Source: Alphaproteobacteria bacterium
Lineage (GTDB): Bacteria; Pseudomonadota; Alphaproteobacteria; CACIAM-22H2
DNA: 64,000 bases
NCBI GenBank assembly: GCA_965279355.1
Contig: OZ257155.1
Location: forward strand, 1,961,048-2,025,047
Direction: 5' to 3'
Shown here in pieces: positions 13,693 through 51,138 of this stretch (position 1 is the first letter of the stretch; each line of letters starts with the position of its first letter). Under the pieces are notes generated by a model. That model was not told the origin of the DNA. It saw only the letters and a list, made by a program, of their open reading frames with translations, and ran no database searches. Both the position numbers and the translations under genes were made by a program.

Positions 13693-14703
13693 ATGAAGCG
13701 CTTCTGGGGAACACTGTGTGCAGTGATCGCGCTCGGCGCGACGGGCACTGCCACCGCGCAGACCACCGATCTGAAATTCGCCCTCGACTGGAAGTTCGAA
13801 GGGCCGTCGGCGCCGTACGTCGTCGCGCTCGACAAGGGCTACTACAAGGCCGAAGGCCTGAACGTCACCATCGATGTCGGCCCGGGCTCGGTTGCCGGCA
13901 TCGGCCGCGTCGCCGCCGGCGTCTACCCGATGGGCTTCTTCGACATCAACTCCCTTGCCAAGTTCCGCAATGAAAACCCGGACAAGGCGGTCAAGGGCGT
14001 CATGATGTTCTATGACGTGCCGCCCTTCGCCATCATCTCGCTCGCCAAGAACGGCATCAACAAGCCGAGTGATCTCGAGGGCAAGATCCTCGGCGCGCCT
14101 GCCCCCGACGGCGCTTTCGCGCAGTGGAAGGCGTTCGTTCATGAATCCAAGTTCGACGCCTCCAAGGTGAAGATCGAGAATGTCGGCTTCCCCGTGCGCG
14201 AGCCGATGCTCGCCAAGGGAGACGTGCACGCCATCACCGGCTTCTCTTTCTCTTCGGTCTTCAACCTGATGCAGGCCGGCGTGAAGAAGGAAGACATCAA
14301 GGTCATGCTGATGTCCGATCACGGCCTGGTGCTTTACGGCAACGCCATCATGGTCAATCCGGACTTCATGAAAGCAAACCCGAAGGCGATCGCCGGCTTC
14401 ATTCGCGCGACGATCAAGGGCATGCAGGACACCGTGAAGAACCCGGCCGAGTCGGTGAAGGCCGTGATGAAGCGCAACGAGACCGGCAATGAGCAGATTG
14501 AGCTGCAACGCCTCCAGATGGCGATGCAGGAAAACATCCTCACGCCTTACGTGAAGGCGAACGGCTTCGGCGGTGTCGACATGACGCGTCTGGCGAAGTC
14601 GATCGACCAGATCGCGCTGACTTATGAATTCAAGAACAAGCCGACGGCGGCTGACATGTTCACCAACGAGTTCCTGCCGCCCGCCGCGGACCGGAAACTC
14701 TAA
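13693..14703 (+). CDS. ABC transporter substrate-binding protein, NMT1/THI5-like (SsuA/TauA family)
   Basis: Signal peptide MKRFWGTLCAVIALGATGTATA followed by a periplasmic binding fold. The start was chosen inside the longer track ORF. Confidence 0.75.
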   Translation: MKRFWGTLCAVIALGATGTATAQTTDLKFALDWKFEGPSAPYVVALDKGYYKAEGLNVTIDVGPGSVAGIGRVAAGVYPMGFFDINSLAKFRNENPDKAVKGVMMFYDVPPFAIISLAKNGINKPSDLEGKILGAPAPDGAFAQWKAFVHESKFDASKVKIENVGFPVREPMLAKGDVHAITGFSFSSVFNLMQAGVKKEDIKVMLMSDHGLVLYGNAIMVNPDFMKANPKAIAGFIRATIKGMQDTVKNPAESVKAVMKRNETGNEQIELQRLQMAMQENILTPYVKANGFGGVDMTRLAKSIDQIALTYEFKNKPTAADMFTNEFLPPAADRKL

Positions 14704-14731
14704 GGATCCGATCGAGACACGAGAACAAGGG

Positions 14732-15520
14732 GTGTCCTCGTTTGTCGAAATCGACGACGTAACGCTCGTCTACAAGGCAGCAGCGGGCAATGTGCTCGCC
14801 CTGCAGGGGACGACGCTGAACGTCGGACAAGGCGAGTTTGCCGCAGTGGTCGGTCCGTCCGGCTGCGGCAAATCCTCCCTCATGAAGCTGGTGACGGGAC
14901 TGGTCCGCCCGGAGAAAGGCGGCATCGTCGTCGCCGGGTCCCAGGTCAACGGCCCGGTCAAGCTGGCCGGCATGGCCTTCCAGAATTCCAGCCTGCTGCC
15001 CTGGCGCACTGTCCTCGACAATGTCCTGCTGCCGCTCGAAATCGTCGAGCCGCATCGCAGCAATTTCCGGCGCGACAAGGCCAAGTACAAGGAGCAGGCC
15101 GAAGCGCTGCTCGCCACGGTGGGGCTTGAAGGCTTCGGCAGCCGCTTTCCGTGGGAACTCTCCGGCGGCATGCAGCAGCGCGCCAATCTGTGCCGCGCGC
15201 TGATCCACCAGCCCGCCCTGCTCATGCTCGACGAGCCGTTCGGCGCCCTCGACGCCTTCACCCGTGAAGAGCTGTGGTGCGTGCTGCGCGATCTCTGGCA
15301 GAAACTCCGCTGCACCGTCATTCTCGTCACGCACGATCTCCGCGAGGCGACGTTCCTCGCCGACACGATCCATGTGATGAGCGCCCGGCCTGGCCATATC
15401 GTGCTGACCAAGCACATCGACCTGCCGCGTCCACGCGAACTCGACGTCTGCTTCAAGCCGGAATTCACCGACATCGTGCACGAGCTGCGCGCCAAGATCG
15501 CCCAGGTGCGCGTGAAATGA
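14732..15520 (+). CDS. ABC transporter ATP-binding protein
   Basis: Walker A GPSGCGKSS, signature LSGGMQQR, Walker B LLMLDEPF. GTG start preceded by aagggg. Confidence 0.85.
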   Translation: MSSFVEIDDVTLVYKAAAGNVLALQGTTLNVGQGEFAAVVGPSGCGKSSLMKLVTGLVRPEKGGIVVAGSQVNGPVKLAGMAFQNSSLLPWRTVLDNVLLPLEIVEPHRSNFRRDKAKYKEQAEALLATVGLEGFGSRFPWELSGGMQQRANLCRALIHQPALLMLDEPFGALDAFTREELWCVLRDLWQKLRCTVILVTHDLREATFLADTIHVMSARPGHIVLTKHIDLPRPRELDVCFKPEFTDIVHELRAKIAQVRVK

Positions 15521-16293
15521 ATCCCTCGACAACGATGGAACGCCTGTCGCCGTGGCTCTTCACCATCGGCCTTTTCGTGTTCTGGGAGGCGGTGTGCCGG
15601 CTCTTCAAGGTCGACCCGTTCATCCTTCCGGCGCCGTCGATCATCTTCGAAGCAACCGTCCAGCACTGGCGGGCGCTGATGCGCCACTCCTTCACCACGC
15701 TGTGGACCACCATCGCCGGCTTCGCCATCGCCGTCGTGTTCGGCGTGGTGCTCGGCCTCGTCGTCGGCTGGTCGCGCGCGATCTATCGCGGGCTCTACCC
15801 CGTGATGATCGGCTTTAATTCGATCCCCAAGGTCGCGGTGGTGCCGATCCTGGTCATCTGGTTCGGCATCGGCGAAGTACCGGCCATCCTCACCGCTTTC
15901 CTGATCTCGTTCTTCCCGATCGTCGTGAACGTCGCGACCGGTCTGGCGACAATCGAGCCGGAGCTTGAGGACGTGCTCCGGGCTCTTGGCGCCAAGAAGC
16001 TCGACATCATGCTGAAGATCGGAATCCCGCGCGCCCAGCCCTATTTCTTCGGCTCGCTCAAGGTGGCGATCACCCTGGCCTTCGTCGGCACGGTGGTGTC
16101 GGAGACAATCGCGGCCAATTCCGGTCTCGGCTTCCTGATGGCCCAGGCCGGATCGAACTTCCAGATGCCCATCGTCTTCGCCGGTCTGCTGCTTCTCGCC
16201 GTCGAGGGCATCGTCATGTACGCCGTCTTCGCGCTGATCGAAGTCCGCTTTACCGGCTGGGCCTTCCGCTCCTCCATGAGCGCCGGTGGCTGA
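15517..16293 (+). CDS. ABC transporter permease (SsuC/TauC-like)
   Basis: A polytopic membrane protein of about 259 aa. Its ATG overlaps the stop of the ATPase gene (ATGA). Confidence 0.8.
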   Translation: MNPSTTMERLSPWLFTIGLFVFWEAVCRLFKVDPFILPAPSIIFEATVQHWRALMRHSFTTLWTTIAGFAIAVVFGVVLGLVVGWSRAIYRGLYPVMIGFNSIPKVAVVPILVIWFGIGEVPAILTAFLISFFPIVVNVATGLATIEPELEDVLRALGAKKLDIMLKIGIPRAQPYFFGSLKVAITLAFVGTVVSETIAANSGLGFLMAQAGSNFQMPIVFAGLLLLAVEGIVMYAVFALIEVRFTGWAFRSSMSAGG

Positions 16294-16409: not shown

Positions 16410-17480
16410 ATGACGACCTACAACACGCTGATCCTGGGCGCGTCCTACGGATCGCTGCTTGCCACCAAGCTCCTGTTTGCCGGCCATAAGGTGAAGGTGA
16501 TCTGCCTGCCCGCCGAAGCGGAGGTCATCAATGCCGACGGCGCCCGCGTGCGCCTGCCCATCAAGGGCCGCAAGGATCTGGTCGAAATCGATACCCGCAA
16601 GCTGCCCGGCACGCTGACTGCCGCCGGTCCCGGCGACGTCAATCCCGCCGACTACGACCTGATCGCGCTGGCGATGCAGGAGCCGCAATACCGTTCCCCC
16701 GGCGTTCGCGAACTGCTCGATGCCGTCGCCAAATCGCGCAAGCCGTGCATGTCGATCATGAACATGCCGCCGCTGCCGTATCTGAAGCGCATACCCGGCC
16801 TCGATACCGACCAGCTCAAGCACGCCTATACCGACGCGGCCGTCTGGCAGAATTTCGATCCCGCCGCGATGACGCTGTGCAGCCCCGACCCGCAGGCATT
16901 CCGACCGCCGGAGGAGAAGGTCAACGTGCTGCAGGTCACGCTGCCGACCAACTTCAAGGCCGCGCGTTTTGAATCCGACGCGCACACAGCGATTCTGAAG
17001 CAGATGCAGGCGGATATCGAAGCCATCCGTCACGATCCCGGAGACGGAATGAAGATCGAGCTGCCGGTGAAGCTCAAGGTCCACGACTCGATCTTCGTAC
17101 CGCTGGCCAAGTGGTCGATGCTGCTGACCGGCAACTATCGCTGCGTCACCAAGGACGCGGCACGCTCCATCAAGGAAGCCGTGCACACCGATATCGAAGA
17201 ATCGCGCGAGGTCTACAACTGGGTCCGCCAGTTGTGCATGAAGATGGGTGCAGCGCCCGACGATCTGGTGCCGTTCGAGAAATACGCGGCCGCCGCTCAG
17301 GGCCTTGCGCGGCCTTCGTCGGCCGCCAGGGCACTGTTTGCCGGAGCGCCGAATATCGAGCGCGTGGACCGTCTGGTGCAGAGCATCGCCGCCAGCAAGG
17401 GCCTGCGGCATCCCGTGGTCGATGCCACGGTGGCGATGGTCGACGCGCGGCTGGAGCTCAACCGCAAGAAAGCCGCCTGA
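16410..17480 (+). CDS. NAD(P)-binding Rossmann-fold oxidoreductase, ketopantoate-reductase (ApbA/PanE)-like
   Basis: 356 aa with an N-terminal LILGASYGSLLATKL dinucleotide-binding motif. The family assignment is tentative. Confidence 0.45.
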   Translation: MTTYNTLILGASYGSLLATKLLFAGHKVKVICLPAEAEVINADGARVRLPIKGRKDLVEIDTRKLPGTLTAAGPGDVNPADYDLIALAMQEPQYRSPGVRELLDAVAKSRKPCMSIMNMPPLPYLKRIPGLDTDQLKHAYTDAAVWQNFDPAAMTLCSPDPQAFRPPEEKVNVLQVTLPTNFKAARFESDAHTAILKQMQADIEAIRHDPGDGMKIELPVKLKVHDSIFVPLAKWSMLLTGNYRCVTKDAARSIKEAVHTDIEESREVYNWVRQLCMKMGAAPDDLVPFEKYAAAAQGLARPSSAARALFAGAPNIERVDRLVQSIAASKGLRHPVVDATVAMVDARLELNRKKAA

Positions 17481-17489
17481 CGAAGCGGG

Positions 17490-18998
17490 CTAGGTCAGGC
17501 TGGCGAAACGGTTGACCGTCGCCGGGCGCTGCAGCGCCTCGACGATCAGCGGCTCGAAGGCGGGGCGTTCGGCGCGGGTTGTCGCGATGAGTTCGGCGTT
17601 GTCGACATGATTGCGCGCCGCAAAGTCATCGGCTTCCGCCAGCAGGTCTTCTTCGTTGATGCGCGTGCTGCGCCCGCCTTTCAGCACGATTTCCCCGCCG
17701 ACCAGCACCATATCGATGGCGGACCCGTTCTCGTAGATCGCGAGATGATTCCAGATGTCGCCGAGCGGCCGATAATTCGCGTGCGTCAGATCGATCAGGG
17801 TGAGATCCGCATGCGCGCCGGGACGGATCACGCCGATATCGGGATCGCCGAGCACCAGGCCGCCATGCGCGGATGCCATGCGCATGGCCTGGGGCGCGGT
17901 CATCCAGCGGCTGCAATCGGGCTGGCTGATCCGGCTGAGCAGCATCGAGGTCTTGGCCTGCTCGAACATGCTGGTCCGCGTGGAGCTCAGGCTGTCGCAG
18001 CCCAGCGCCACGTTGATCCCCGCCTCCAGTAGTCGCGCCGTCGGTTGCAGTCCGCTGCCGAGCAGGAGATTGCTGACGGGGTTGTTGACCACGTTCACCT
18101 TGCGCTCGGCCGCCAGCTCGATGTCGCGATCGTTGCCCCAGACGAAATGTGCCAGCGACGATTTCGGGCCGATCAGGCCGAACTTGTCGAGATATGCAAC
18201 GAAACTGCCCTGATTGTCCGTCGGTGCCACCAGGGCCTGCGTTTTCGCCTCAAGCAGATGCGTGTGCAGGCCGATGCCGTGCTTTGCCGAGAAATCGCCG
18301 GTCATTTCCAGCAATCGAACCGTGCAGCGCTGCGGACCATCGACGCCGATCATCACCTGCATCCGGTCGCGCTTGTGAAACTGCGCGACGACCTCCTCCA
18401 GCATCGCGAAATACTCTTCGGGCGGACGCGTCTTCATCGCGCCCCAGCGGTCCTGCACGGATTTGGGGAGCCTCGTGCGGTCGATCGGCATCGAGTCCAC
18501 GTAGACCCTGTCCTCATACATCGGGGCGATGGCTGCCCGGACCCCGGCGGTCTTGTAAGCGCCGAACGCCGCGCCGATGGCTTCCACCGTCGGCACCGCG
18601 CCGTGGCGAAAATGGTCGACGGCGGAGGTGATGCCATGCTTGAGCATATCCAGCGCCTGCAGGAGCACTGCGACGCGGATGAAATTAAGATCGGCCGGCG
18701 CGCGGCGTGCCATCGCCTCCATCACAAAGAGATCGAGCGGCGCCCCCGGCACCGTGCCGCGCAGCAGCGACGAGTAGGAATGGGAATGCGAGTTCACCAT
18801 CCCCGGCATCACCAGCCGGTTCCGGCCATCAATCCGGTCCACCGGTCCCGGCCGGGGTGCCGGACTATTGGCGGGAAGCAGGGCCAGGACGCGGCCGTCG
18901 GCCACCCAGAGGTCCATGCCCTCCAGGATTTCATCGTCAATCATGGTGGCGATCCTGGCGCCAGCGATGCACAGCAGATTATCTGAAGATTTGTTCAT
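17490..18998 (-). CDS. Amidohydrolase of the TRZ/ATZ/SsnA subfamily (guanine/8-oxoguanine/aminotriazine deaminase-like)
   Basis: 502 aa with metal-binding VNSHSHSYSS and the amidohydrolase superfamily fold. Confidence 0.7.
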   Translation of the reverse strand: MNKSSDNLLCIAGARIATMIDDEILEGMDLWVADGRVLALLPANSPAPRPGPVDRIDGRNRLVMPGMVNSHSHSYSSLLRGTVPGAPLDLFVMEAMARRAPADLNFIRVAVLLQALDMLKHGITSAVDHFRHGAVPTVEAIGAAFGAYKTAGVRAAIAPMYEDRVYVDSMPIDRTRLPKSVQDRWGAMKTRPPEEYFAMLEEVVAQFHKRDRMQVMIGVDGPQRCTVRLLEMTGDFSAKHGIGLHTHLLEAKTQALVAPTDNQGSFVAYLDKFGLIGPKSSLAHFVWGNDRDIELAAERKVNVVNNPVSNLLLGSGLQPTARLLEAGINVALGCDSLSSTRTSMFEQAKTSMLLSRISQPDCSRWMTAPQAMRMASAHGGLVLGDPDIGVIRPGAHADLTLIDLTHANYRPLGDIWNHLAIYENGSAIDMVLVGGEIVLKGGRSTRINEEDLLAEADDFAARNHVDNAELIATTRAERPAFEPLIVEALQRPATVNRFASLT

Positions 18999-20836: not shown

Positions 20837-21982
20837 GTGGGCCATGCCCGGATTGGATCGCCGGTCGTGACGAAACCGCCCAAGGATATCCAGTTTGGCG
20901 TGTTCCTGCCGATCGCTAACGGCGGCTGGATTGTCTCGAAATCGGCTCCGAAGATTGACGGCTCCTTCGATCTCAATCGACGCACCGCATTGCTGGCAGA
21001 AGAGATCGGAATGGATTTCGCGCTGTCCATGATGAAATGGCGGGGTTTTGGCGGCCCATCGGATTACTGGGGCACATCCGTAGAATCGATGATCCTGATG
21101 TCGGCGCTGTCGCAGATCACGACGCGCCTCAAACTTTGGTGCACGGTCCATACGCTCCTGCATCATCCCGTCGCCATCGCGAAGATGATCGCGACACTCG
21201 ATCATGCGGCGGGCGGTAGAGCCGGAATCAACATCGTGTCTGGATCTTATCGAGACGAATTCGTGCAAATGGGCCTGTGGCCCGACGACCTCGACCATAA
21301 TGGCCGTTATGCGCTGGCGGAGGAGTGGATCACCGTCGTGAAACGCCTCTGGCAGGAACGGAGCGTCGATTTCAGCGGCAAGCACTTCACCCTGACGGAC
21401 TGCGTCTCCGAACCCAAGCCGGTGGCGCGGCCGCACCCGACAATTATTTGCGCCGGAATTTCAGAAACCGGCCTCCAGATGACCGCCCGACACGCCGATG
21501 CAGCCTTCGTCCATGGCAAGGACGACGCGGAAATCGCCGCCAATTCACGGCGGGCAAAGCAGATTGCTGCGGAGCATGGCCGGTCCATCAAGACGTTCAT
21601 CTACTGCACCGTCATCCCCGGAGAGACCAACGCGGAGGCCGAAGCCCGGATGGCACTCTATCGCAGCACGATCGATCTCGAGACGGTCGCCGGAATGGCC
21701 GAGGCCTTCAGCCATACCCCGCGCCGGGACGGCAAGCCCAACACCATGGTGCTGCGGGCACAGGCCGCTTTCATGACAGCGGTCGCCGCCGGTTCGCCAG
21801 AAAACCTGCGCCAAAAGATTGCCGAAACGATCCGCGCCGCCGACCTCGATGGCATGATGTTTATCTTCCCGGATTTCATCGCGGATCAGCGCTTCTTCGG
21901 CGAGCGGGTTCTGCCTGATTTACGCGCAGACCTGAACCTGCAGCGACCTTACGCCGCCACTGGCACCGGGCTTGCACGGTAA
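20837..21982 (+). CDS. LLM-class flavin-dependent monooxygenase, RutA (pyrimidine monooxygenase)-like
   Basis: 381 aa. Recalled RutA blocks are conserved (FALSMMKWRGFGG, VSGSY..EF.QMGLWPDD, HFTLTDC, IICAG..TG...ARHADA). The start may instead be GTG at 20866. Confidence 0.6.
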   Translation: MGHARIGSPVVTKPPKDIQFGVFLPIANGGWIVSKSAPKIDGSFDLNRRTALLAEEIGMDFALSMMKWRGFGGPSDYWGTSVESMILMSALSQITTRLKLWCTVHTLLHHPVAIAKMIATLDHAAGGRAGINIVSGSYRDEFVQMGLWPDDLDHNGRYALAEEWITVVKRLWQERSVDFSGKHFTLTDCVSEPKPVARPHPTIICAGISETGLQMTARHADAAFVHGKDDAEIAANSRRAKQIAAEHGRSIKTFIYCTVIPGETNAEAEARMALYRSTIDLETVAGMAEAFSHTPRRDGKPNTMVLRAQAAFMTAVAAGSPENLRQKIAETIRAADLDGMMFIFPDFIADQRFFGERVLPDLRADLNLQRPYAATGTGLAR

Positions 21983-22045: not shown

Positions 22046-23035
22046 ATGAGCCGTAAACTTTTGGCCGGTCTCGCCGGCGCAGTCCTTCTGCTGAGCACTG
22101 GCGCGGCTAAAGCCGCCGACCAGGTGGTGTTTCAGCTCGGCTGGTTTCCCGGCGGTTACAATTCACCCCCCTATATCGGAGTACAGAAGGGGCTATTTGC
22201 CGCCGAGAACCTTGAAGTAAAAATCCTGTCCGGCCGCGGCTCTGCCGACACGCTGACAAAACTGTCCACCAGTGTCGCCGATTTCGGCGAAGCCGGCCTT
22301 GATGCGCTCATGGCGGCCAAGGCCGAGGGAACAGTGCAAGCGACAGCCGTGATGGCAATGTTCACCCAGCAGCCCGACGCGCTGATTACGACCACGGCGA
22401 CCGGCATCAATACTCTTAAAGACATGCCCGGAAAATCAGTGGGGACGTCACCCTTCACGTCGTCCAATCTACCGTGGCCGCTCGTGTTGAAGCAGGCCGG
22501 CGTCGATCCGTCGACCGTGCGCCTGGTTAAAGTCGATGCCAACGCACTGTTCGGTATGCTGGCGGCGGGTCAGGTCGATGGCATCCTCGTGTGGACCACG
22601 ACAGCACCGGCCGCAATCCCCGCGCTGACAGCGGCCGGGCGCACGATGAAAGTCATTCCGTGGTCGCGCGAAGGCTATGACGGCTATTCGCAGGCGATTG
22701 TCGCCTCCAACAAGACATTGACCGAGCGGCCGGACGTCACCCGACGCTTCCTCAAGGTCCTGCGCCAAACGTTCGAGTTGATGGCGAAAGAGCCGGACGC
22801 CGCAGCCGAAGCGGTAAAGGCACACGCACCACAGGCCGATCTCGGCGCGCTGCGGGCACAGGTCGATGCCACGGTACCGCTGATGATCAACGATATTAGC
22901 CGGCGCGACGGACTTGGCGTGTTCAACCCGACCTTGGTGCAAAAGACCTGGGAATGGGTTGCCAAGGCGCGCGAATATCCGATGGACAAGATGGCGCCGA
23001 TGTCGGTGATCGACACCAAGTTCGTCGGTTCCTGA
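22046..23035 (+). CDS. ABC transporter substrate-binding protein, NMT1/THI5-like; orphan with no adjacent permease or ATPase
   Basis: Signal peptide MSRKLLAGLAGAVLLLSTGAAKA followed by a periplasmic binding fold. Confidence 0.7.
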   Translation: MSRKLLAGLAGAVLLLSTGAAKAADQVVFQLGWFPGGYNSPPYIGVQKGLFAAENLEVKILSGRGSADTLTKLSTSVADFGEAGLDALMAAKAEGTVQATAVMAMFTQQPDALITTTATGINTLKDMPGKSVGTSPFTSSNLPWPLVLKQAGVDPSTVRLVKVDANALFGMLAAGQVDGILVWTTTAPAAIPALTAAGRTMKVIPWSREGYDGYSQAIVASNKTLTERPDVTRRFLKVLRQTFELMAKEPDAAAEAVKAHAPQADLGALRAQVDATVPLMINDISRRDGLGVFNPTLVQKTWEWVAKAREYPMDKMAPMSVIDTKFVGS

Positions 23036-23067: not shown

Positions 23068-24231
23068 CTACGCCTTGTGAGCGTAGAGCCAGTCGATCAT
23101 CGAGAAATCGGTCGGTGAGCGCCGCGACATCAGATCGTTACGAACGATGGCCGGCACGCCTTCCTGGTGGAAATAAGCACCCATCGCGCGGGCAGTGATC
23201 TGCACCCGCGCAGTGCGCATCGCACGGTCGCCTTCGTAAGCCTTCAGGGCCACCGCGGGATCGGCACTCTGCGAAACATGCCGGGCGAGACACGACGCAT
23301 CCTCGATCGCCTGACAGGCGCCTTGCGCGATGTACTGGAACATCGGATGCGCGGCATCGCCGAGCAGACCGATGCGGTTCTTGGTCCAGGTCAGGATCGG
23401 CTCGCGGTCATGCATGGGCCAGCGCTTGTCGCGCCACATCTGCTTCTGGCAGGTCTGCACATAGTCACAGCACTGCGAAAAATGCGCGTCGAGTTCGTCG
23501 ACCGTACCCCAGTCGTCGGTGCCGGGCCGATAGCGCTTGCTGCGGAACACGGCGACCTGGTTGTAGAGCTCGGCACGGCGGACCGGATACTGCACGAAAT
23601 GCATATCCGGACCGACCCACATCACGACATTGTCGAGACCGGCATGCTTGGACATCTGCTCCATCGGCAAGGTACCGCGATAGGCGACATAGCCCATGCA
23701 GACCGGATCGTCCTTGACGATCAGGCCGCGCACCGTCGACCACAGGCCGTCGGCGCCGATCAGTAGATCCGTCTCATAGACAGTCCCGTCGGCAAACCGC
23801 ACGCGAGCACCCTGCCCCAGATCCTCAACGCCCGTGACCGCACGATTGGCTTCCAGGGTGATCTGCTTGTTGGCCTGACACGCCTGCAAGAGAGCGGTGA
23901 GCAGGTCGCTGCGATGCATGACGATATAGGGATAGCCATAGCGGCTCTGGAAAAGCTCGCCGCAGTCGATGGCGGTGATTTCCTTTTCGCGGATGGCGTC
24001 CATCCACACCAGCCGGCTGGGGAAGACGGCGTTCTTCTTGACCTCGGACAGAACGCCGACCTGGTCGAGAACCCGCATCGCATTGGGGGCAAGCTGCAGC
24101 CCCGCGCCGATTTCGCCGAACTCCGGCGCCTTCTCGACGACATGGACCTTCTTGCCCTTGAGGGCGAGCGCCAGGGCCGCCGTCAGGCCGCCAATGCCGC
24201 CGCCGATAATGAGGATGGGTAAACGGTCCAT
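23068..24231 (-). CDS. FAD-dependent aromatic-ring monooxygenase (salicylate / 3-hydroxybenzoate / 6-hydroxynicotinate hydroxylase family)
   Basis: 387 aa with GGGIGGLTAALAL FAD-binding N-terminus, DG..S motif (GADGLWSTVR), GDAAH.M. Confidence 0.75.
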   Translation of the reverse strand: MDRLPILIIGGGIGGLTAALALALKGKKVHVVEKAPEFGEIGAGLQLAPNAMRVLDQVGVLSEVKKNAVFPSRLVWMDAIREKEITAIDCGELFQSRYGYPYIVMHRSDLLTALLQACQANKQITLEANRAVTGVEDLGQGARVRFADGTVYETDLLIGADGLWSTVRGLIVKDDPVCMGYVAYRGTLPMEQMSKHAGLDNVVMWVGPDMHFVQYPVRRAELYNQVAVFRSKRYRPGTDDWGTVDELDAHFSQCCDYVQTCQKQMWRDKRWPMHDREPILTWTKNRIGLLGDAAHPMFQYIAQGACQAIEDASCLARHVSQSADPAVALKAYEGDRAMRTARVQITARAMGAYFHQEGVPAIVRNDLMSRRSPTDFSMIDWLYAHKA

Positions 24232-24258
24232 GTTTCCTGCCCTTATGTCCGGTTTTTC

Positions 24259-25113
24259 TTAGCTACGCAGGGGCGCGCGGCCCCAGAGATTAAGCGTCCG
24301 CTGCTCATGGGGCCAGCTTCCAGCCGGCCGGCCGGCCGGAACGATCTCGAGTTCCGCCGACAACTCCACCGAGTTGCCGTCCGGATCATCTATGAAGAGA
24401 AAGAGATTGTTGCCGGGGCCGTGACGGCCGGGCCCCCACACCACGGGGATGCGCAGGCCGGCCAGATGATCGCCCCAGTCGCGGATGTCATTCCAGCCGC
24501 TGGTCTCATAGCAGCAATGATCGAAGCCGGATTTGGGCGCCTGGAAGACCGCAAAGCTGTGATGCTCGTCGTCGGAGCGCAGGAAGCAGGCGGTCAGCGA
24601 GCCGTCATCGCGGAATACGCGATCCGAAACCGTGAAGCCAAGCCTCTCTTCGTAGAACTGCGCCACGCGGCTGGATTGGGTGCTCGCCATGACGAAATGC
24701 TGGAGACGGGCCGGCAGAATACCGCCGCTCTCGATCGTGGCCGGACAGCCAAATACGACCCGCGTGCCGTCGGGATCGGTGATCGAGAACGCATCGGCGA
24801 AAAGCGGCGAGCCGCCCTGAACGATGGCCGTACCGGTCTTCTCGATATCGCTGCGCAGCGCCTTCAGGGCGTTGCGATCGCTCACCGCATAGGCCGCATA
24901 AGCCAGACGCTTTGCCTGCCCCGCAGACAGCACGAGGCGGCGATCGGTGGCGGTGCAGATCTTCGCGCCGCCCTCGCCATCGGCGCAATCCATGCCCAGC
25001 GCCTGTTCGTAGAACCTCGCCAAGGCCGCAGGATCGGGAGTTTCCAGTCCAAGATGGTGAAGACGGGACCGCATCGGCATTTCCTCCGTATACGGATGAT
25101 ATATACCGTACAC
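24259..25113 (-). CDS. Two-domain VOC (glyoxalase/extradiol ring-cleavage dioxygenase) family protein
   Basis: 284 aa with two tandem VOC modules. An alternative start lies at MPMRSRL (25080). Confidence 0.65.
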   Translation of the reverse strand: MYGIYHPYTEEMPMRSRLHHLGLETPDPAALARFYEQALGMDCADGEGGAKICTATDRRLVLSAGQAKRLAYAAYAVSDRNALKALRSDIEKTGTAIVQGGSPLFADAFSITDPDGTRVVFGCPATIESGGILPARLQHFVMASTQSSRVAQFYEERLGFTVSDRVFRDDGSLTACFLRSDDEHHSFAVFQAPKSGFDHCCYETSGWNDIRDWGDHLAGLRIPVVWGPGRHGPGNNLFLFIDDPDGNSVELSAELEIVPAGRPAGSWPHEQRTLNLWGRAPLRS

Positions 25114-25241
25114 GGACTATCAATGCAATCCGGCGCCATCCCGGCAAAGGGTCCCGAACAAAAAAGGAAGCGGCGGCGCGCAAGGCCGCAGATTTATCCG
25201 CTCAGGCAGCCCTGCGCCGGGCGACGAAATCAGGCCTCACG

Positions 25242-38504: not shown

Positions 38505-38593
38505 GGGGACCTCTCCTGGGGAACTGGGTTGTTTGGAGGAGAGAACAGCAACCGTCGTGCCAAGCCTGCCTTGCCGAAAAATCAACGGAATCC

Positions 38594-38613
38594 GTATGCA
38601 TTTATGTATGCAA
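38594..38613. promoter_or_regulatory. Candidate operator (inverted/direct repeat) in the divergent region between the GntR gene and the transporter operon
   Basis: gtatgcatttatgtatgcaat contains tgcat-N6-atgca and a gtatgca direct repeat, in an AT-rich stretch. Confidence 0.25.
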
Positions 38614-38727
38614 TTCCTTATTAATGGTCATTCATTAGGCAATTGCGCGATTTCGATCCGCTAGCCGAGGCAGACGGGCGGAAAATCGGCTGAATCGCGC
38701 GGCGCGGCTTTTGCTGTAGAGGTCGCC

Positions 38728-41452: not shown

Positions 41453-42493
41453 TCATGCAGCGGCCTCCGGCAGTTCGGCCTGCGGCAGCGGCGCCAGATC
41501 GCCCTGCTTCACCAGCAGTTCGCGCAGCATGCGCCGCATGATCACGCCGGGGCGATCGGACGCCATGCTCTTCTCGCTCTCCGAGAAATCCTCAAGCGGC
41601 ACGTCGGCTTCGGTGGTTTCAAGGATGATCTTGTCCTCAAGCGTCACCTCGCGATCGAAGGCGATGATATCCGCCGCCGGTGCCTGTTCCTCGGTGTCGT
41701 TGCGATAGCAGAACTGCACCACCATGGACTTGTGATCGTCGATCGGCGTCGCGCAGGTGATGATCGAATGGCGAAGGCCGTTCGGATAGGTGATGCCCAG
41801 CTTGCGAGAAAACGGCATCCACCAAACGTTTTTGCGTGTGCGCGTCGTGATGCCGTTATCCATCTGCAGATTCTTTTTCTGGATATCGGTGTTCTTCACA
41901 TTCGACACGGCGGTGTAGTTGAAGCCGCCGTCGAACGGCATGATCTCGGGCTGCACATGCGTCGGGTCCGACTGGATGCCGAAGGTCTTGCGGTGCACGA
42001 AGGCGGGGTGCGCGATGTCGAAGGAGTTTTCCATCAGGCGCAGGCCCGAACACTCCCACATCTCGTAAAACTGGTCGATCCTGCGGAAGCCGGGCTCGCC
42101 GGCCTCGGTGATGTCGGGGATGCCATAGAGCGGCTCGTCGAGGGCTACCCAGACATAGCCGTAACGTTCCTCGGCCCGGTACGCTGGAATCCGCATGTTC
42201 TTTGGTTGGCGCTCAACGTCCATCTGCGGAATGCGGACGCACAGTCCCGTGCGATCGAAGGTCCAGCCGTGATAGCCGCAGACCACGTTGCCGTTCTCGC
42301 AGAAGCCTTTGCTTAGCCTGGCCGTGCGATGGCAGCAGCGGTCAAGGGTCGCCGCCGGCTTACCGGCCGCGTCGAGCCAAAGGACGATATCGGTTTCCAG
42401 CAGCCGGAACGGCTTCGGCCCGTCCTTCAGGTCCTCGACCTTGATGACGGGGTACCAAAAGCGACGGAAAACCGGATGTTTGGTGACCAGCAT
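41453..42493 (-). CDS. Rieske [2Fe-2S] non-heme-iron oxygenase alpha subunit (VanA/phthalate-family monooxygenase-like)
   Basis: 346 aa with the Rieske motif CCHR-X16-CGYHGW and a C-terminal mononuclear-iron catalytic domain. Confidence 0.8.
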   Translation of the reverse strand: MLVTKHPVFRRFWYPVIKVEDLKDGPKPFRLLETDIVLWLDAAGKPAATLDRCCHRTARLSKGFCENGNVVCGYHGWTFDRTGLCVRIPQMDVERQPKNMRIPAYRAEERYGYVWVALDEPLYGIPDITEAGEPGFRRIDQFYEMWECSGLRLMENSFDIAHPAFVHRKTFGIQSDPTHVQPEIMPFDGGFNYTAVSNVKNTDIQKKNLQMDNGITTRTRKNVWWMPFSRKLGITYPNGLRHSIITCATPIDDHKSMVVQFCYRNDTEEQAPAADIIAFDREVTLEDKIILETTEADVPLEDFSESEKSMASDRPGVIMRRMLRELLVKQGDLAPLPQAELPEAAA

Positions 42494-43579: not shown

Positions 43580-43691
43580 GCAAAAAGGCTCCGGACGGAC
43601 GATGCACAATCAGTATGCATCGTTCCGCCCGGTCCGGAAACTTGTAATGACCGACTGGCCCTCAACGGGCCGGATTATTTAGCGTGACCCG

Positions 43692-44743: not shown

Positions 44744-45802
44744 CTATTCCGCAGCCTGCACGCTGCCCTGAAATGAGGGCGCAACGACGGATGTGATATC
44801 CGTCTCGCCATGCTGGCGCAGCAACTCAAGCATGCGGCGGCGCATGACAAGGCCGGGCTTGTCGGACGGCATATGGAACTCAGTGCCGCTGCGGATATCG
44901 AGCGACACATCGGGTTCCGTCGATTCCAAGATCGGGCGGTCCTCGTCCGTGACCCTGCGGTCGAATTCGATGATGTCGGCCGCCTTTGCCTGTTCCTCGG
45001 TGTCGTTGCGGAACACGAACTGAACGATCTGCGACGACGTGTCATCGATCGGCGTCGCACTGGTCACGATCGAATGTTTTGTGCCGCTCGGATAGGTGAT
45101 CCCGAGCTTGCGGGTGAACGGCATGAACCACTTAGACTGGGTGATACGCACGGTGCGTGCGCCCGTCGTGCCGGTGATGGACGTGGCGAGATCGCTGCGG
45201 TTCATCACCGGAATCTCGGATTTGAACTCGAATCCGTAGTCGGTCTCATTGATATCGTACGTCGCCGGTAGCGGCTCCTGCACGTTGCCGAAAGTTTCCC
45301 GGTGCACATAGGCGACATGCGCGTTATCGAACGAGTTCTCCATTAGCCGCAGACCGGCGCAGTTCCAGACTTCATAGAACTGGTCGATCTGGCGAAAGCC
45401 GGGCGCGTCGGCCTCCTCGAAATGCGGGATGTCGGCCAGAGGTTCGCCGAGGCATACCCAGACATGGCCGTACTTCACCGACGCCTTATAGCTCGGGATG
45501 GAATAGTTGACCTTGCGGGTCTGGTTGCGCTGCTGCGGGATCTTCACGACCGCGCCGGTGCCGTCGAACGTCCAGCCGTGATAGCCGCAAACCAGTTGGC
45601 CATTTTCGAGAAAGCCGCGCGACAGTTTGGCCGAGCGGTGGCAGCAGCGATCTTCGACCGCGCTGGGCTGTCCGGCCGCATCCAGCCAGACCACAATGTC
45701 CTGGCCCAGCAGACGAAACGGCTTCGGCCCGTCAGCGAGATGCCCCACGGGTATTACGGGATACCAGAAACGTTTCAGAACATTCTGCTTGGTGACCAGC
45801 AC
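44744..45802 (-). CDS. Rieske non-heme-iron oxygenase alpha subunit (paralog of 41453..42493)
   Basis: 352 aa with Rieske motif CCHR-X16-CGYHGW. Long identical stretches are shared with the first copy (FWYPVI, PFTRKLGITYP, VQFVFRNDTEEQA). Confidence 0.8.
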   Translation of the reverse strand: MLVTKQNVLKRFWYPVIPVGHLADGPKPFRLLGQDIVVWLDAAGQPSAVEDRCCHRSAKLSRGFLENGQLVCGYHGWTFDGTGAVVKIPQQRNQTRKVNYSIPSYKASVKYGHVWVCLGEPLADIPHFEEADAPGFRQIDQFYEVWNCAGLRLMENSFDNAHVAYVHRETFGNVQEPLPATYDINETDYGFEFKSEIPVMNRSDLATSITGTTGARTVRITQSKWFMPFTRKLGITYPSGTKHSIVTSATPIDDTSSQIVQFVFRNDTEEQAKAADIIEFDRRVTDEDRPILESTEPDVSLDIRSGTEFHMPSDKPGLVMRRRMLELLRQHGETDITSVVAPSFQGSVQAAE

Positions 45803-45850: not shown

Positions 45851-46849
45851 TCAGGTGGCCCCTTCGAGGGCCAGCTTCTTGGGCATGGAGGCGTTCAGCT
45901 TTTCCTGGGTGTGGACGGATGCGCGCACCGGCGGATATTTCACCGGACGGCTCGCATCGGTACAGGTCGGCAGGCAGGATATGATCGCGTCCTCGTTGGG
46001 ACCGGAGAACAGAACCAGTGACAGGCGCTTGGTCGAGCCTGTGAGGTGGCGCGGGGGATTGATGACTCGGTGCAGGGTCGAAACCCAGCGATCGTTGGTC
46101 CAGCGCGCCATCAGGTCGCCGACATTGATCACGAACGACCTGGCGACCGGCATCACATCGAGCCATTCGCCTGTCTTGGTAAAAACCTGCAAGCCCCCGG
46201 GGGCGTCGTCCTGGCGCAGAATGGTGAGGCCGCCATAGTCGGAATGTGCGCCGTAACGAAGCTGGCCGGGTTTCGGTTCATCCGGCTGATCGGGATAAGC
46301 GACGGCCCGCAAGGTGCCACGCTGCCGATCCATGAAGGGCAGGAAATAATCCTCGGTCAGGTCGAGCGCCAGCGCCGAAAGCCGCATCAGCGTGACCGAT
46401 AAAGACTTTACCGCCATATAGTATTCACGCACGGCATTAGTGAGTTGCGGCGGTGTATCCGGATAGACGTTTCCCGTGATCGAGCTGACTTTGCCCCGGA
46501 GCTCGCCGGGCTCTTCGCGATCGATGCCAGCGAATACCAGCGCCTCGCAGAGGTCGGGTGGACGATCGTCACCGCGGGTGCGCGCAACGCTTTCTATTCC
46601 CACTGGGAGATAGCCCTTGGTTTTGACGCGGTCGGTAACGGACCACCGCATCTTCTCTTCCAGCGGAAGATCGAAAAAACGGCTCAGCACATTGTAAGCG
46701 CCGGTGGCCGTCGGCTCGGGAACGCCGTGGCCTACAATCGTCGCAAAGCCGACCTCCTCGAATGCCCGCCCCCATTCCCTCGCCACAGCCCTCCGCTGCT
46801 CGATGTTGCCCTGGAGGAATGGCTGAATATCAATTCGCGGAACACTCAT
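45851..46849 (-). CDS. 2-oxoglutarate/Fe(II)-dependent dioxygenase (isopenicillin-N-synthase-like)
   Basis: 332 aa with the HxD...H facial triad context (GAHSDYGGLTIL ... STLHRV). Confidence 0.75.
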   Translation of the reverse strand: MSVPRIDIQPFLQGNIEQRRAVAREWGRAFEEVGFATIVGHGVPEPTATGAYNVLSRFFDLPLEEKMRWSVTDRVKTKGYLPVGIESVARTRGDDRPPDLCEALVFAGIDREEPGELRGKVSSITGNVYPDTPPQLTNAVREYYMAVKSLSVTLMRLSALALDLTEDYFLPFMDRQRGTLRAVAYPDQPDEPKPGQLRYGAHSDYGGLTILRQDDAPGGLQVFTKTGEWLDVMPVARSFVINVGDLMARWTNDRWVSTLHRVINPPRHLTGSTKRLSLVLFSGPNEDAIISCLPTCTDASRPVKYPPVRASVHTQEKLNASMPKKLALEGAT

Positions 46850-48003: not shown

Positions 48004-48876
48004 GTGCACGCCCATCCAACCGGAGTACTTGCCGTGAAACTGCGCCGCCTGTGGCAGGAAATGACGACCGAGGAATTTCGCGCGCTCGATGCCGAGCGGG
48101 TGATCGCGATCCTGCCGGTCGCCGCGATCGAACAGCACGGCCCGCACCTGCCGGTCGAGGTCGATACCAGAATCAACGCCGGAATCCTGTCCCGCGCGGT
48201 GGAACTGATGCCGGCGGAACTGCCGGTCACGATCCTGCCCGCGATGACGGTCGGGAAAAGCAGCGAGCACACGGCGTTTCCCGGTACCCTGACCCTGACG
48301 GCCGAGACGACGATCCGGCTTTGGACCGAGATCGGCGAATCCGTGGCGCGTGCCGGTATCAAGAAGATGGTCATCTTCAACAGCCATGGCGGGCAGCCGC
48401 AGATCGCCGACATCGTCGCGCGCGACCTACGGGTGCGGCTCGGAATGTTCGTGGTGACCGTCAGCTCCTACAGCCTCGGCCGGCCGGAGGGCATGTTCCC
48501 GGAGCATGAACTCAAGCACGGCATTCATGGCGGCACCGTCGAAACGTCGCTGATGCTGCGGCTGCGCCCCGACCTGGTGCAGATGGACAAGGCCAAGAAT
48601 TTCGAATCGCTCTCCGCCCGCATGGAGACCGAATACGAGATGCTGACGCCGGAAGGCAAAGTCGGCTTCGGCTGGCAGACCCAGGATCTGAACCCGGATG
48701 GCGCCTGCGGTGACGCGTCAGCGGCGGATGCCGGCCGCGGATCGATCCTGCTGGATCACTGCGCGCAACGGTTAGTGTCGCTGCTCTGGGAGATCGACCG
48801 TTTCCCACTCTCCGCCATCGGTGTCAAATCCGAGCCGACACGCCGCGGGCCCATTCGCATCGTGACCAGCAACTGA
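48004..48876 (+). CDS. Creatininase-family amidohydrolase
   Basis: The creatinine amidohydrolase motif AIEQHGPHLP and binuclear-metal ligands are present. The start is uncertain (GTG 48004, GTG 48034 or ATG 48061). Confidence 0.7.
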   Translation: MHAHPTGVLAVKLRRLWQEMTTEEFRALDAERVIAILPVAAIEQHGPHLPVEVDTRINAGILSRAVELMPAELPVTILPAMTVGKSSEHTAFPGTLTLTAETTIRLWTEIGESVARAGIKKMVIFNSHGGQPQIADIVARDLRVRLGMFVVTVSSYSLGRPEGMFPEHELKHGIHGGTVETSLMLRLRPDLVQMDKAKNFESLSARMETEYEMLTPEGKVGFGWQTQDLNPDGACGDASAADAGRGSILLDHCAQRLVSLLWEIDRFPLSAIGVKSEPTRRGPIRIVTSN

Positions 48877-48901: not shown

Positions 48902-49888
48902 ATGAATGTCTACCGCCCGGCGCGACCGGCCCTCCTGCCCGTCATCGACCTGTCCGGCGGCTTTTCGCCGTCGCTGGCGTCGCGACAGAGAGTCGCCGGG
49001 GAAATCGGAGCGGCGAGCCGGACGCATGGCTTTTTCTATGTCAGGAACCACAATGTTCCGCAGTACCTGATCGACAACCTGTTCGAGACAGCACGCCAGT
49101 TCTTCGCCATGCCGGCGGACGAGAAAGCGAAATGCACAGCCACGACGCCTTTCACGGCGCGTGGTTATGAAGGGTTCAACACCCAGGCTTTCGATCCCGA
49201 CGCGCCGGCGGACTACAAGGAAGGTTTCGTCCTCGGCATCGAACGGGGTCCCGATCATCCCTACGTCAAGGTCGGTGTACACAACCAGGGCGCCAATCTC
49301 TGGCATCCGGGGCAACCGGTGTTTCGCGCCGCGTCCGAAGACTATTTCAACGCGACCTTCCGGCTCGGTGTCGATCTCATGCGCCTGGTGGCGTTGTCGC
49401 TCGAACTCCCGGAAGATTTCTTCGACTCCCACTTCACCGATCCCATCGCCAATCTCCGGGTTCTGCACTATCCGGCGCACCCCAAGGACGCCCCGCCAGG
49501 CCAGCTCGGTTGCGGCGCGCACACTGACTGGGGCGCTTTGACCGTCCTGCTACAGGACGACTGCGGCGGGCTCGAGGTCCAGGGTGTCGACGGTGAGTGG
49601 ATTTTCGCCGAACCGGTCGAGGGCACCTTCGTCGTCAATCTCGGCGACCTGCTGGCGCGCTGGACCAACGATCTCTATCAATCCACGCCGCATCGCGTGA
49701 TGAACAACCGTTCCGGCCGTGACCGCTACTCGGCCGCCATGTTCCTTGACCCCAACCACTATTCGCAAATCGAGTGCCTGCCGAGCTGCCAGTCGGCGGG
49801 CCATCCGCCGAAATACCCGGTGTGCAGCGCCGGCGAGCACAATCTCGAAATGTACCGGCGCACGCACCCGACGGCGCCGACGGCTTAA
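48902..49888 (+). CDS. 2-oxoglutarate/Fe(II)-dependent dioxygenase (paralog of 45851..46849)
   Basis: 328 aa. It shares GAHTDWGALTVLLQDD and STPHRV blocks with the other copy. Confidence 0.75.
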   Translation: MNVYRPARPALLPVIDLSGGFSPSLASRQRVAGEIGAASRTHGFFYVRNHNVPQYLIDNLFETARQFFAMPADEKAKCTATTPFTARGYEGFNTQAFDPDAPADYKEGFVLGIERGPDHPYVKVGVHNQGANLWHPGQPVFRAASEDYFNATFRLGVDLMRLVALSLELPEDFFDSHFTDPIANLRVLHYPAHPKDAPPGQLGCGAHTDWGALTVLLQDDCGGLEVQGVDGEWIFAEPVEGTFVVNLGDLLARWTNDLYQSTPHRVMNNRSGRDRYSAAMFLDPNHYSQIECLPSCQSAGHPPKYPVCSAGEHNLEMYRRTHPTAPTA

Positions 49889-50145
49889 GCCACACTTCCG
49901 AAGATACAAAGGACGCCGGCAGCGGCAGTTGCTGTTTTGCTCCTCGGTTCCATGCCGCCAAGGCAACGGCGCGATTCTCGGACACCGTCCCGGATCATCG
50001 GACCAAAAAACCGCCATATGCGGGCGATCCCGTACGGACTGCGGATTAAACCGCAGCCAGCGTCACGATGCCGAACACCGCAAGGCTTGGTACGGCAATT
50101 GCTGTTCCTCCATCACCATAGGTTGTCCTGAACCAGGAGGTCGCA

Positions 50146-51138
50146 ATGGCTACCCATTCCCTGACACGCCGTACCGCTCTATCCCTCGCCGGTCTCGCGC
50201 TGCTGACGCCTGCCATCGCAGCCGCGCAGGACAAGGTTTCTTTCCAGACGAACTGGCGCGCCCAGGCCGAGCACGGCGGTTTCTATCAGGCGGTGGGCGC
50301 CGGCATCTACAAGAAGCACGGCCTTGAGGTGGAAATCCGCATGGGCGGGCCGCAGCAGGATCCCAATGCCCTGCTCCTCGCCGGCCGCGTCGACTTCATC
50401 ATGAACAACGCCTTCGGCGGCTTCAACTACGTGCGGGAAAACCTGCCCTTCATCGTGATCGCCTCGATGATGCAGAAGGATCCGCAGGTGCTGATCTCGC
50501 ATCCCGGCGTCGGCCATGACAGCCTCGCCGCCATGAAGGGCAAGCCGGTCCTCGTCGGCGCGGTGGCGCGCAACAGCTTCTACCCGTTCCTGAAGGCCAA
50601 GTTCGGATTCACCGATGAGATGATCCGACCCTATACGTTCAACATGGGGCCGTTCCTCGCCGACAAGAATGCGATCCAGCAGGGCTTCCTGACCAGCGAA
50701 GTGTTCTCCGCCGAACTCGCCGGCGTAAAGCCGGTCGTTCACCTGCTCGCCGACTCAGGCTTCGACAATTATCAGACAACGATCAATACATCGCTGAAAC
50801 TGATCGAAGCCAAGCCCGATCTCGTGCAGCGTTTCGTCAACGCCTCGATCGAAGGCTGGTACAGCTACATCTATAGCGATCCGACACCAGGCAACAAACT
50901 GATCAAAGCCGACAATCCGGATATGACCGACGACAAGATCGCCTACGCCATCGCAAAAATGAAGGAGTACGGCATCGTCGACTCAGGGGATTCAAAGACG
51001 CTCGGTATCGGCGCCATGACCGATGCGCGCTGGCAGCGGTTTTATAAAACCTATGTAGACGCCGGAATCTATCCGGCCACCCTGGACTATCGCAAGGCGT
51101 ACACCCTGCAGTTCGTCAACAAAAAGGTGGGAATGTGA
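50146..51138 (+). CDS. ABC transporter substrate-binding protein, NMT1/THI5-like
   Basis: 330 aa with a Tat/Sec-type signal (RRTALSLAGLALLTPAIAAAQ). It is the first gene of an SBP-ATPase-permease operon. Confidence 0.8.
   Translation: MATHSLTRRTALSLAGLALLTPAIAAAQDKVSFQTNWRAQAEHGGFYQAVGAGIYKKHGLEVEIRMGGPQQDPNALLLAGRVDFIMNNAFGGFNYVRENLPFIVIASMMQKDPQVLISHPGVGHDSLAAMKGKPVLVGAVARNSFYPFLKAKFGFTDEMIRPYTFNMGPFLADKNAIQQGFLTSEVFSAELAGVKPVVHLLADSGFDNYQTTINTSLKLIEAKPDLVQRFVNASIEGWYSYIYSDPTPGNKLIKADNPDMTDDKIAYAIAKMKEYGIVDSGDSKTLGIGAMTDARWQRFYKTYVDAGIYPATLDYRKAYTLQFVNKKVGM

Follow-up and report, generated by a model that had tools for sequence, protein, structure and literature searches.

Seven NMT1/THI5-like substrate-binding protein genes and three ABC translocators in a 64-kb region of an alphaproteobacterial genome

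Binding proteins and translocators

A stretch of 64,000 nucleotides from an Alphaproteobacteria bacterium (contig OZ257155.1, positions 1,961,048 to 2,025,047; called the window in what follows) carries seven genes, here numbered S1 to S7, for substrate-binding proteins (SBPs) of the NMT1/THI5 type, which are the receptors of NitT/TauT-family ATP-binding cassette (ABC) importers. Since the G+C content of the window is 60-66%, long spurious open reading frames (ORFs) are frequent in it; genes were picked by codon-position G+C (third-position value, GC3, > 0.72) and then annotated with Pfam and NCBIfam. All seven SBP ORFs match the Pfam family NMT1 (PF09084), at 74-127 bits against a cutoff of 20.5, in the places where an initial annotation had put them. 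Its count of only three permease/ATPase pairs is likewise borne out by Pfam and by tblastn of all such proteins against the whole window, which gave exactly seven SBP, three ATPase and three permease loci and no extra copies or fragments of any of them. The genes are as follows.

13693-14703, plus strand: S1, SBP, NMT1 127 bits
14732-15520 (longest ORF starts at 14624), plus strand: ATPase1, Pfam ABC_tran, likely start GTG 14732
15517-16293, plus strand: Perm1, a single permease, Pfam BPD_transp_1, its ATG at 15517 overlapping the ATPase1 stop (ATGA)
22046-23035, plus strand: S2, SBP, NMT1 113 bits
34905-35855, minus strand: S3, SBP, NMT1 79 bits
35874-36650, minus strand: ATPase2, Pfam ABC_tran
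36655-37503, minus strand: Perm2, permease, Pfam BPD_transp_1
37545-38504 (longest ORF to 38585), minus strand: S4, SBP, NMT1 84 bits
43692-44702 (longest ORF to 44717), minus strand: S5, SBP, NMT1 99 bits
47005-48003, plus strand: S6, SBP, NMT1 98 bits
50146-51138, plus strand: S7, SBP, NMT1 74 bits
51135-51962, plus strand: ATPase3 (Pfam), overlapping S7 by 4 nt and translationally coupled to it
51959-52840, plus strand: Perm3, permease (Pfam), overlapping ATPase3 by 4 nt and translationally coupled to it

The start of ATPase1 was placed from the lengths of its orthologues (262-269 aa) and the list of start codons. Exact copies of the S1, S2, S3, S4, S6 and S7 proteins are on record from one NCBI/ENA contig of 4,958,815 bp, while S5 is on record only with a different start codon. 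At least ten such SBPs are carried by this genome, and seven of them sit within 37 kb of its 4.96 Mb. S3, S5 and S6 are intact ORFs of normal GC3.

By BLASTP, S5 and S7 are 52% identical, S5 and S6 40%, S6 and S7 38% (group A), and S3 and S4 42% (group B), while S1 and S2 each stand alone and share at most 29% identity with any other of the seven; the subfamilies are likewise no more than 29% identical to one another. The two paralogue groups that had been proposed, and with them the subfamily structure, are thus real. The sequence motifs quoted for group A hold exactly in S5 and S7 only, S6 being looser and reading WHPQMEHCGWFQAKATGLY; S7 has DYRK in place of DYKK, and the C-terminal FVNKxxGM is common to S5, S6 and S7. 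The three translocators are about as divergent as the SBP subfamilies, with 36-41% identity among the ATPases and 25-30% among the permeases.

A heuristic scan found signal-peptide-like N-termini in all seven SBPs, each with a positive n-region, a hydrophobic core (12-aa hydropathy 1.9-2.6 across the seven) and an AxA-like site; twin-arginine (RR) motifs occur in S3, S4, S5 and S7, and S4 bears a SRRHLL signal of the twin-arginine translocation (Tat) type. Because of these N-termini, the seven are taken to be periplasmic receptors and not cytoplasmic enzymes like THI5. An AlphaFold 2 model of S7 (mean predicted local distance difference test score, pLDDT, 90; residues 1-24 disordered) confirmed the two-lobed fold of class II periplasmic binding proteins, and its best Foldseek matches were thiamin-bound 4nmy and ThiY (3ix1), with template-modelling (TM) scores of 0.72-0.80 at 16-18% identity. 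The closest solved structures are remote throughout, namely the same two for S1, S2 and S7, and SsuA (2x26) for S4. None of the seven reached a curated NCBIfam cutoff; S3 and S4 come closest to the SsuA family (SsuA_fam, 113-124 bits against a cutoff of 163.5), the others scoring lower or not matching.

Two characterised binding activities were tried as candidates and rejected. Sulfonate binding of the SsuA/TauA type (TIGR01728, TIGR01729, NF008588) was set aside since even the best score, the 124 bits of S4, lies below 163.5; SsuABC and TauABC belong to the same NitT/TauT family, but the S3/S4 operon has no sulfonate monooxygenase, and its conserved neighbour is an allophanate hydrolase. A ThiY-type receptor for 4-amino-5-hydroxymethyl-2-methylpyrimidine (HMP), its formylaminopyrimidine relative (FAMP) or thiamin was set aside at <= 18% identity; ThiXYZ and 4nmy, whose ligands are pyrimidine-containing heterocycles, have the NMT1/THI5-like fold in common with S7, S1 and S2, but the window context is one of purine and ureide catabolism, and neither thiamin genes nor a thiamin pyrophosphate (TPP) riboswitch occur in the window. 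Of the ligands first proposed, pyrimidine-like heterocycles or sulfonates, the nitrogen-heterocycle class is plausible, while sulfonates are rejected on the curated cutoffs and the gene context.

Gene neighbourhoods of the four SBP types

S5, S6 and S7 lie in a cluster with the following further genes, assigned by Pfam unless otherwise stated.

41453-42493, minus strand: VanA-like Rieske oxygenase, the second of the cluster, downstream of S5; its orthologue follows S5 in locus L003
42659-43609, minus strand: LysR regulator, downstream of S5
44744-45802, minus strand: Rieske oxygenase, co-oriented with S5
45851-46849, minus strand: 2-oxoglutarate (2OG)/Fe(II) oxygenase, co-oriented with S5
48004-48876, plus strand: creatininase-family hydrolase
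48902-49888, plus strand: 2OG/Fe(II) oxygenase
52842-54188, plus strand: PRK07583 cytosine-deaminase-like amidohydrolase of the S7 operon, NCBIfam 635 bits against a cutoff of 403
54191-55567, plus strand: FAD_binding_4 oxidase, first of a tandem in the S7 operon
55564-56943, plus strand: FAD_binding_4 oxidase, second of the tandem

On one strand the order is S6, creatininase-like gene, 2OG oxygenase, a gap of 257 nt, S7, ATPase3, Perm3, the CodA-like deaminase and the two FAD_binding_4 oxidases, so that S6 is the first gene of its own three-gene run and stands 2.1 kb upstream of S7; a divergent operon runs 2OG oxygenase, Rieske oxygenase, S5, with S5 as its last gene. More than 8,000 relatives of S7 were found. 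In a scan of species-representative genomes, which yielded 77 group A loci annotated by tblastn with the window proteins and relatives that were all <= 69% identical, an S7-type SBP is followed by the ATPase in 70 of the 74 loci with room for it, and then by the permease in 64 of 66. Among the 47 loci that span 15 kb or more, frequent neighbours are the PRK07583 amidohydrolase (21), a flavodoxin_2 reductase (18), FAD_binding_4 oxidases (13) and a creatininase-family hydrolase (12), and in many genomes a creatininase-like gene lies directly upstream of the S7-type operon.

S5-type genes were met in only three of the 77 loci (L001-L003, the closest to the window) and S6-type genes only in L002, in each case within an S7 cluster and without a second, dedicated translocator. 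ATPase3 and Perm3 are 74-81% identical to their counterparts in these three loci, S5 is 63-70% identical to its orthologues there, and S6 also has an orthologue in this range. L002 has three SBPs and one translocator, in the order S6, Rieske, 2OG, S5, creatininase-like gene, 278 nt, S7, ATPase, permease, deaminase and two FAD_binding_4 oxidases, while two loci with no extra SBP (L041 and L058) start at the creatininase-like gene and continue, after 280 nt, from S7 onward. Full-length relatives of S6 at >= 55% identity number three among 1.84 billion cluster representatives. In a neighbour-joining tree the clades of S5 and S6 come off at the base of the large S7 group, and, since both branch basally and have few relatives, they are best seen as old but rare accessory paralogues within a conserved importer-plus-enzyme module. 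At the 97 columns that are at least 90% conserved in 77 S7-type proteins, the S5 clade differs at nine and the S6 clade at 27, while 45 are identical in all S5 and S6 members; these clade substitutions are compatible with a changed specificity of S5 and S6, and are not proof of it.

S3 and S4 face two divergent genes.

38728-39435, plus strand: GntR regulator (Pfam), divergent from the S4 operon
39514-41322, plus strand: allophanate hydrolase, NCBIfam 828 bits against a cutoff of 487, also divergent from the S4 operon

S4, Perm2, ATPase2 and S3 follow one another on the same strand with gaps of 41, 4 and 18 nt, which agrees with the single operon already suggested for the two SBPs. In 32 related metagenome loci the conserved core is an S4-type SBP, a permease and an ATPase (ATPase2 orthologues, 61-73% identical, after the SBP and permease genes), often with an allophanate hydrolase and a GntR regulator upstream (as in L078, L088, L089, L093, L099, L107 and L108) and a PuuE-like deacetylase downstream. 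A second SBP is rare in them; a short locus, L106, holds a 74% match to S3. As S3 starts 18 nt past ATPase2, is the terminal gene, and such a second SBP is rare elsewhere, it appears to be an accessory receptor appended to the S4 operon, and the link to allophanate hydrolase suggests a ureide or urea-like ligand for S3 and S4. By their distribution, then, S3, S5 and S6 appear to be rare, lineage-specific additions to two conserved cores, S4-permease-ATPase and creatininase-like gene/S7/ATPase/permease/deaminase/flavin oxidases. The divergent intergenic region between S4 and the GntR gene (38505-38727) holds a tandem GTATGCA(T/A)TT repeat (CCGTATGCATTTATGTATGCAATTCC), a plausible GntR operator, and a similar GTATGCAT lies in the gap between the LysR gene and S5 (43610-43691).

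S1 belongs to a large and well-conserved family, with more than 6,500 relatives found and orthologues of 70-81% identity. The S1-type SBP-ATPase-permease unit lies amid purine-catabolism genes in every locus examined: those that extend upstream carry urate oxidase of the PuuD type, PuuE allantoinase and 2-oxo-4-hydroxy-4-carboxy-5-ureidoimidazoline (OHCU) decarboxylase/5-hydroxyisourate (HIU) hydrolase, and XdhAB is directly downstream in L161, L162 and L164. S1 in the window has these same neighbours, and Perm1 is 78% identical to the permease in L161. Curated cutoffs were passed by XdhAB, PuuE, allantoate amidohydrolase, allophanate hydrolase, the AtzE family and HpxZ. Judged by its neighbourhood, S1 is part of a conserved purine-catabolism module, for which a purine base or urate is the obvious ligand candidate; what it hands on to the neighbouring XdhAB/urate-oxidase pathway would most likely be xanthine, urate or another purine base. 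Directly after Perm1 is an ORF of 356 aa (16410-17480, plus strand) with coding-like GC3 and a Rossmann-like N-terminus LILGASYGSLLATKL, which matched nothing in Pfam or NCBIfam even when the thresholds were relaxed; the orthologous S1 loci lack it and have XdhA next after the permease. At 23068-29108 (minus strand) XdhA-XdhB are followed by an extradiol-dioxygenase-like gene of glyoxalase fold and a class-A flavin monooxygenase, and not by XdhC or guanine deaminase; the monooxygenase is like 3-hydroxybenzoate-6-monooxygenase/HpxO, at 415 bits just below a cutoff of 459.

S2 stands immediately downstream of one gene that belongs to its setting.

20837-21982, plus strand: RutA-like luciferase-family monooxygenase, Pfam Bac_luciferase

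The product of that gene scores 270 bits against NCBIfam RutA, under the cutoff of 498, and RutA is also its closest PDB entry (228 bits); a 66% identical orthologue adjoins an S2-type SBP in L158 (JGI Ga0577626_0002689). Neither Pfam nor tblastn detected a translocator in the window within 5.7 kb of S2. The S2 family is small (47 matches at E <= 1e-30), and three paralogues of 54-62% identity lie elsewhere on the same 4.96-Mb contig. The closest homologues in other organisms sit in the order 2OG oxygenase, S2-like SBP, ATPase, permease and flavin adenine dinucleotide (FAD) monooxygenase, beside an amidohydrolase 67% identical to that at 17490-18998 in the window; the S2-type SBPs of L158 and L160 likewise have dedicated translocators. 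Since the permeases of S2 homologues are only 34-37% identical to Perm1, and less so to Perm2 and Perm3, no importer in the window is the orthologous partner of S2. L158 has an S2-type and a group A SBP flanking one ATPase/permease pair, the group A protein being accompanied by a Rieske oxygenase and a creatininase-like gene, and a single pair in L160 has two S2-type SBPs and a 2OG oxygenase around it; because the two loci combine the same guild differently around single pairs, the surplus of SBPs recurs in related clusters.

The gene map made with Pfam and NCBIfam agrees with the earlier observation that each SBP adjoins a different oxygenase or hydrolase. The closest solved relatives of the Rieske oxygenase at 44744-45802 are SxtT/SxtDIOX and the methylxanthine N-demethylases NdmA and NdmB (about 104 bits), and the 2OG oxygenase at 48902-49888 is closest to 9ovh, 6jyv and thymine dioxygenase. 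A PDB search puts the PRK07583 amidohydrolase of the S7 operon between CodA (cytosine deaminase) and AtzC. The tandem FAD_binding_4 oxidases (54191-56943) are 55% identical to each other, and the second of them shares 50% identity, at 507 bits, with PDB 6v42/6v43, whose title names a flavin oxygenase with a role in folate catabolism; this similarity is one of sequence, the model of the oxidase being poor (pLDDT 39) and used only to retrieve the entry title. From an NdmA-like Rieske oxygenase, a thymine-hydroxylase-like 2OG oxygenase, the deaminase and the flavin oxygenases, substituted purines or pteridines may be suggested as the ligands of S5, S6 and S7; taken together, the neighbouring enzymes plausibly point to purine, pteridine or ureide substrates. 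A literature search did not find a paper on the 6v42 enzyme or on the conserved S7 cluster, and the Cupriavidus pterin/lumazine pathway (PMC12391406), considered as a match, was rejected because it has different enzymes and permeases of the nucleobase cation symporter (NCS) type.

Probable pairing of receptors and translocators

The initial annotation had left four SBPs as orphans, probably feeding a shared importer. The subtraction of three from seven is right, but S2 is the only true orphan among them: permease and ATPase are co-encoded with S1, S3, S4 and S7, S6 lies upstream of S7 on the same strand and S5 in a divergent operon of the same cluster, so that these two are not orphaned. A single importer common to all four does not agree with the divergence of the three translocators, which co-vary with the SBP subfamilies; in part the idea of sharing does survive, as S3, S5 and S6 probably share the neighbouring engine of their own subfamily, while S2 has no partner in the window. 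A translocator for S2 probably exists in another part of the genome, next to one of the three S2 paralogues.

The explanation that we favour, and consider fairly probable, is one of three subfamily-specific importers, of which two have gained accessory receptors, together with a stand-alone receptor that has its engine elsewhere. Since the distant translocators co-vary with the SBP subfamilies, S1 is assigned to Perm1/ATPase1, S3 and S4 to Perm2/ATPase2, and S5, S6 and S7 to Perm3/ATPase3. The window would belong to an island in the chromosome that serves to scavenge nitrogen heterocycles, purines and ureides among them, by means of three separate type-I NitT/TauT ABC importers, each made from one permease gene and one ATPase gene, with S1, S4 and S7 as the primary receptors of engines 1, 2 and 3 and with S3, S5 and S6 as old paralogues of the primary SBP, added to the same cluster. 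Each SBP would be exported to the periplasm, capture its own ligand and dock on the engine of its own subfamily, so that one engine could import several related compounds, and the oxygenase or hydrolase beside each accessory SBP would then convert the captured compound so that it enters the common pathway as an intermediate. The analysis shows directly the gene content, the paralogy and the synteny, with its conservation across related loci; the docking on a shared engine, the difference in ligands and the ligand identities are what we infer from this arrangement.

A number of points weigh against this explanation. The evidence for pairing each SBP with a translocator consists of paralogy and gene position, and the translocator count is that of the 64-kb window, so that translocators elsewhere in the genome may serve S2 or the accessory SBPs. 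The 257-bp gap that parts S6, the creatininase-like gene and the 2OG oxygenase from S7 contains a weak terminator-like hairpin (49917-49934). A promoter and terminator scan of 41-58 kb gave site counts no higher than the shuffled expectation, no shared operator of >= 14 nt was found among the SBP upstream regions, and neither the SBP nor the dioxygenase genes are preceded by a xanthine riboswitch: Rfam gave no match at the gathering score, and for this family none at E <= 10. As regards ligands, the nearest solved SBPs are <= 18% identical, and the hint of folate or pteridine comes from one PDB title at 50% identity.

Of the alternatives, the best placed, which we nonetheless hold to be unlikely, is that the extra SBPs are isoforms for the same ligand, of high and low affinity or differently regulated, and are not diversified in ligand. 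The retention of many family-conserved residues in S3/S4 and S5/S6/S7 (the 45 of 97 columns identical throughout in the latter) would agree with this, and several SBPs for one ligand are known from the PstS homologues of Synechococcus; however, at 38-52% identity the paralogues are old, and they form separate clades that persist across genomes, the S6 clade departs at 27 positions that S7 conserves, and each accessory operon of group A has oxygenases of its own (Rieske and 2OG for S5, creatininase-like and 2OG for S6), which fits with a distinct substrate that needs a distinct first enzyme. A little less probable still is that every extra SBP works with a translocator encoded in some other part of the 4.96-Mb genome, its nearness to engines 2 and 3 being incidental. 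For S2 this is likely, the type of ATPase and permease dedicated to its homologues being absent from the window and three paralogues lying elsewhere, but in every related locus recovered the S5- and S6-type genes are inside the S7 cluster with no second translocator, and S3 closes the S4-permease-ATPase operon, 18 nt past the ATPase gene.

That some of the extra proteins with the NMT1 fold have no part in transport, acting instead as periplasmic sensors, ligand buffers or enzymes, appears very doubtful. SBPs can also signal to chemoreceptors or kinases, and the enzymes THI5 and DszB are among the structural neighbours of the fold, but all seven proteins have export signals, no chemoreceptor or sensor-kinase gene is among the annotated neighbours in the window, and THI5 is cytoplasmic and <= 18% identical. 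Least credible of all is that the four supernumerary SBPs feed one common importer, for, although promiscuous docking is known from CbcWV with CbcX, CaiX and BetX (PMC5806209) and L158 has an S2-type and a group A SBP around its single ATPase/permease pair, the four span three subfamilies of <= 29% identity, and each of the three equally divergent translocators travels with one SBP subfamily across genomes.

Other features, comparison with known systems, and implications

At the right end of the window lies a module of the oxalurate/1-carboxybiuret type (60666-63980, minus strand).

62640-63980, minus strand: PRK07583 amidohydrolase, the second paralogue in the window
62445-62630, minus strand: HpxX/AtzG-like ORF of 61 aa, only 18 bits, overlapping the next gene by 4 nt
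61057-62448, minus strand: AtzE-family amidase, passing its curated cutoff
60666-61043, minus strand: HpxZ/AtzH, 216 bits

Beyond HpxZ follow an isochorismatase-like hydrolase (RutB/BiuH-like, under the cutoffs) and a cupin gene. Between the former and HpxZ there is an intergenic 32-nt inverted repeat (60498-60529 and 60606-60637) with arms that are 97% complementary and 76 nt apart, each arm having its own GC-rich hairpin (CCCCGCACTTGATGCGGGG); its 25-nt core has no other occurrence in the window, and it may be an element like a repetitive extragenic palindrome (REP) or a miniature inverted-repeat transposable element (MITE), or an operator. The catabolic island is split by a conserved set of four genes (30326-34295, plus strand) for a circularly permuted ATP-grasp protein, an alpha-E domain protein, a transglutaminase-like protein and a homologue of proteasome-type subunits. 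A Flp/Tad pilus assembly cluster at the left end (900-7800; CpaF-like ATPase, secretin, RcpC, CpaD, prepilin peptidase and Flp pilin) and a gene for a small RNA-binding protein with an RNA recognition motif (RRM) domain (29741-30178) are unrelated to the SBPs.

Surplus paralogous SBPs, the mark of multi-SBP importers, are present here as seven SBPs against three translocators, with S3 paralogous to S4 and S5, S6 and S7 to one another, and the arrangement is a well-organised set of such importers that follows a known strategy and does not amount to a novel type of system. In Salmonella and E. coli the paralogous and adjacent HisJ and LAO (ArgT) share HisQMP2 and differ in ligand preference; these are of the polar amino acid transport (PAAT) family, and about 70% identical against 38-52% for the paralogues of the window. 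The Cbc system of Pseudomonas, in which CbcWV works with CbcX, CaiX and BetX, likewise has one translocator and several paralogous SBPs for different ligands, and caiX is placed in the catabolic operon of its ligand, apart from the core transporter that it uses (PMC5806209). Cbc differs in that its SBPs are of the OpuAC/ProX type and bind quaternary amines, that sharing was there shown genetically, and that most accessory SBPs of the window are beside a translocator, not at distant loci. Xanthine riboswitches ("NMT1 motif") control NMT1-like SBPs, tauA, pcbC-like 2OG dioxygenases, Rieske oxygenases and amidohydrolases in Proteobacteria, in operons that are tied to oxidised purines and sometimes hold two NMT1 genes (Yu & Breaker 2020, PMC7373994); going by Pfam, the window has this same guild of genes, but with LysR and GntR regulators where that regulon has the riboswitch.

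A more specific proposal, which at present we regard as speculative and rather improbable, is that the widespread module of creatininase-like gene, S7, ATPase, permease, PRK07583 deaminase and two flavin oxygenases makes up a system for uptake and catabolism of pteridines, folate breakdown products or modified purines, on whose one engine S5 and S6 have been installed as receptor-plus-tailoring cassettes with the NdmA-like Rieske and thymine-hydroxylase-like 2OG oxygenases; if true, substituted analogues would be funnelled into the same core by modular cassettes of this kind.

The proteins concerned are now annotated merely as "ABC transporter substrate-binding protein", or mislabelled as related to sulfonate, nitrate or thiamin. 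The present analysis flags large SBP subfamilies without an assigned ligand and offers predictions for them from their gene neighbourhoods, namely purine bases for S1, ureides for S4 and pteridine- or purine-like rings for S5, S6 and S7, which may be of use in transporter annotation and as targets for ligand discovery; no concept is changed by it. If the pairing is right, this soil bacterium would widen its uptake cheaply, by adding a receptor and one or two tailoring enzymes and not a whole transporter.

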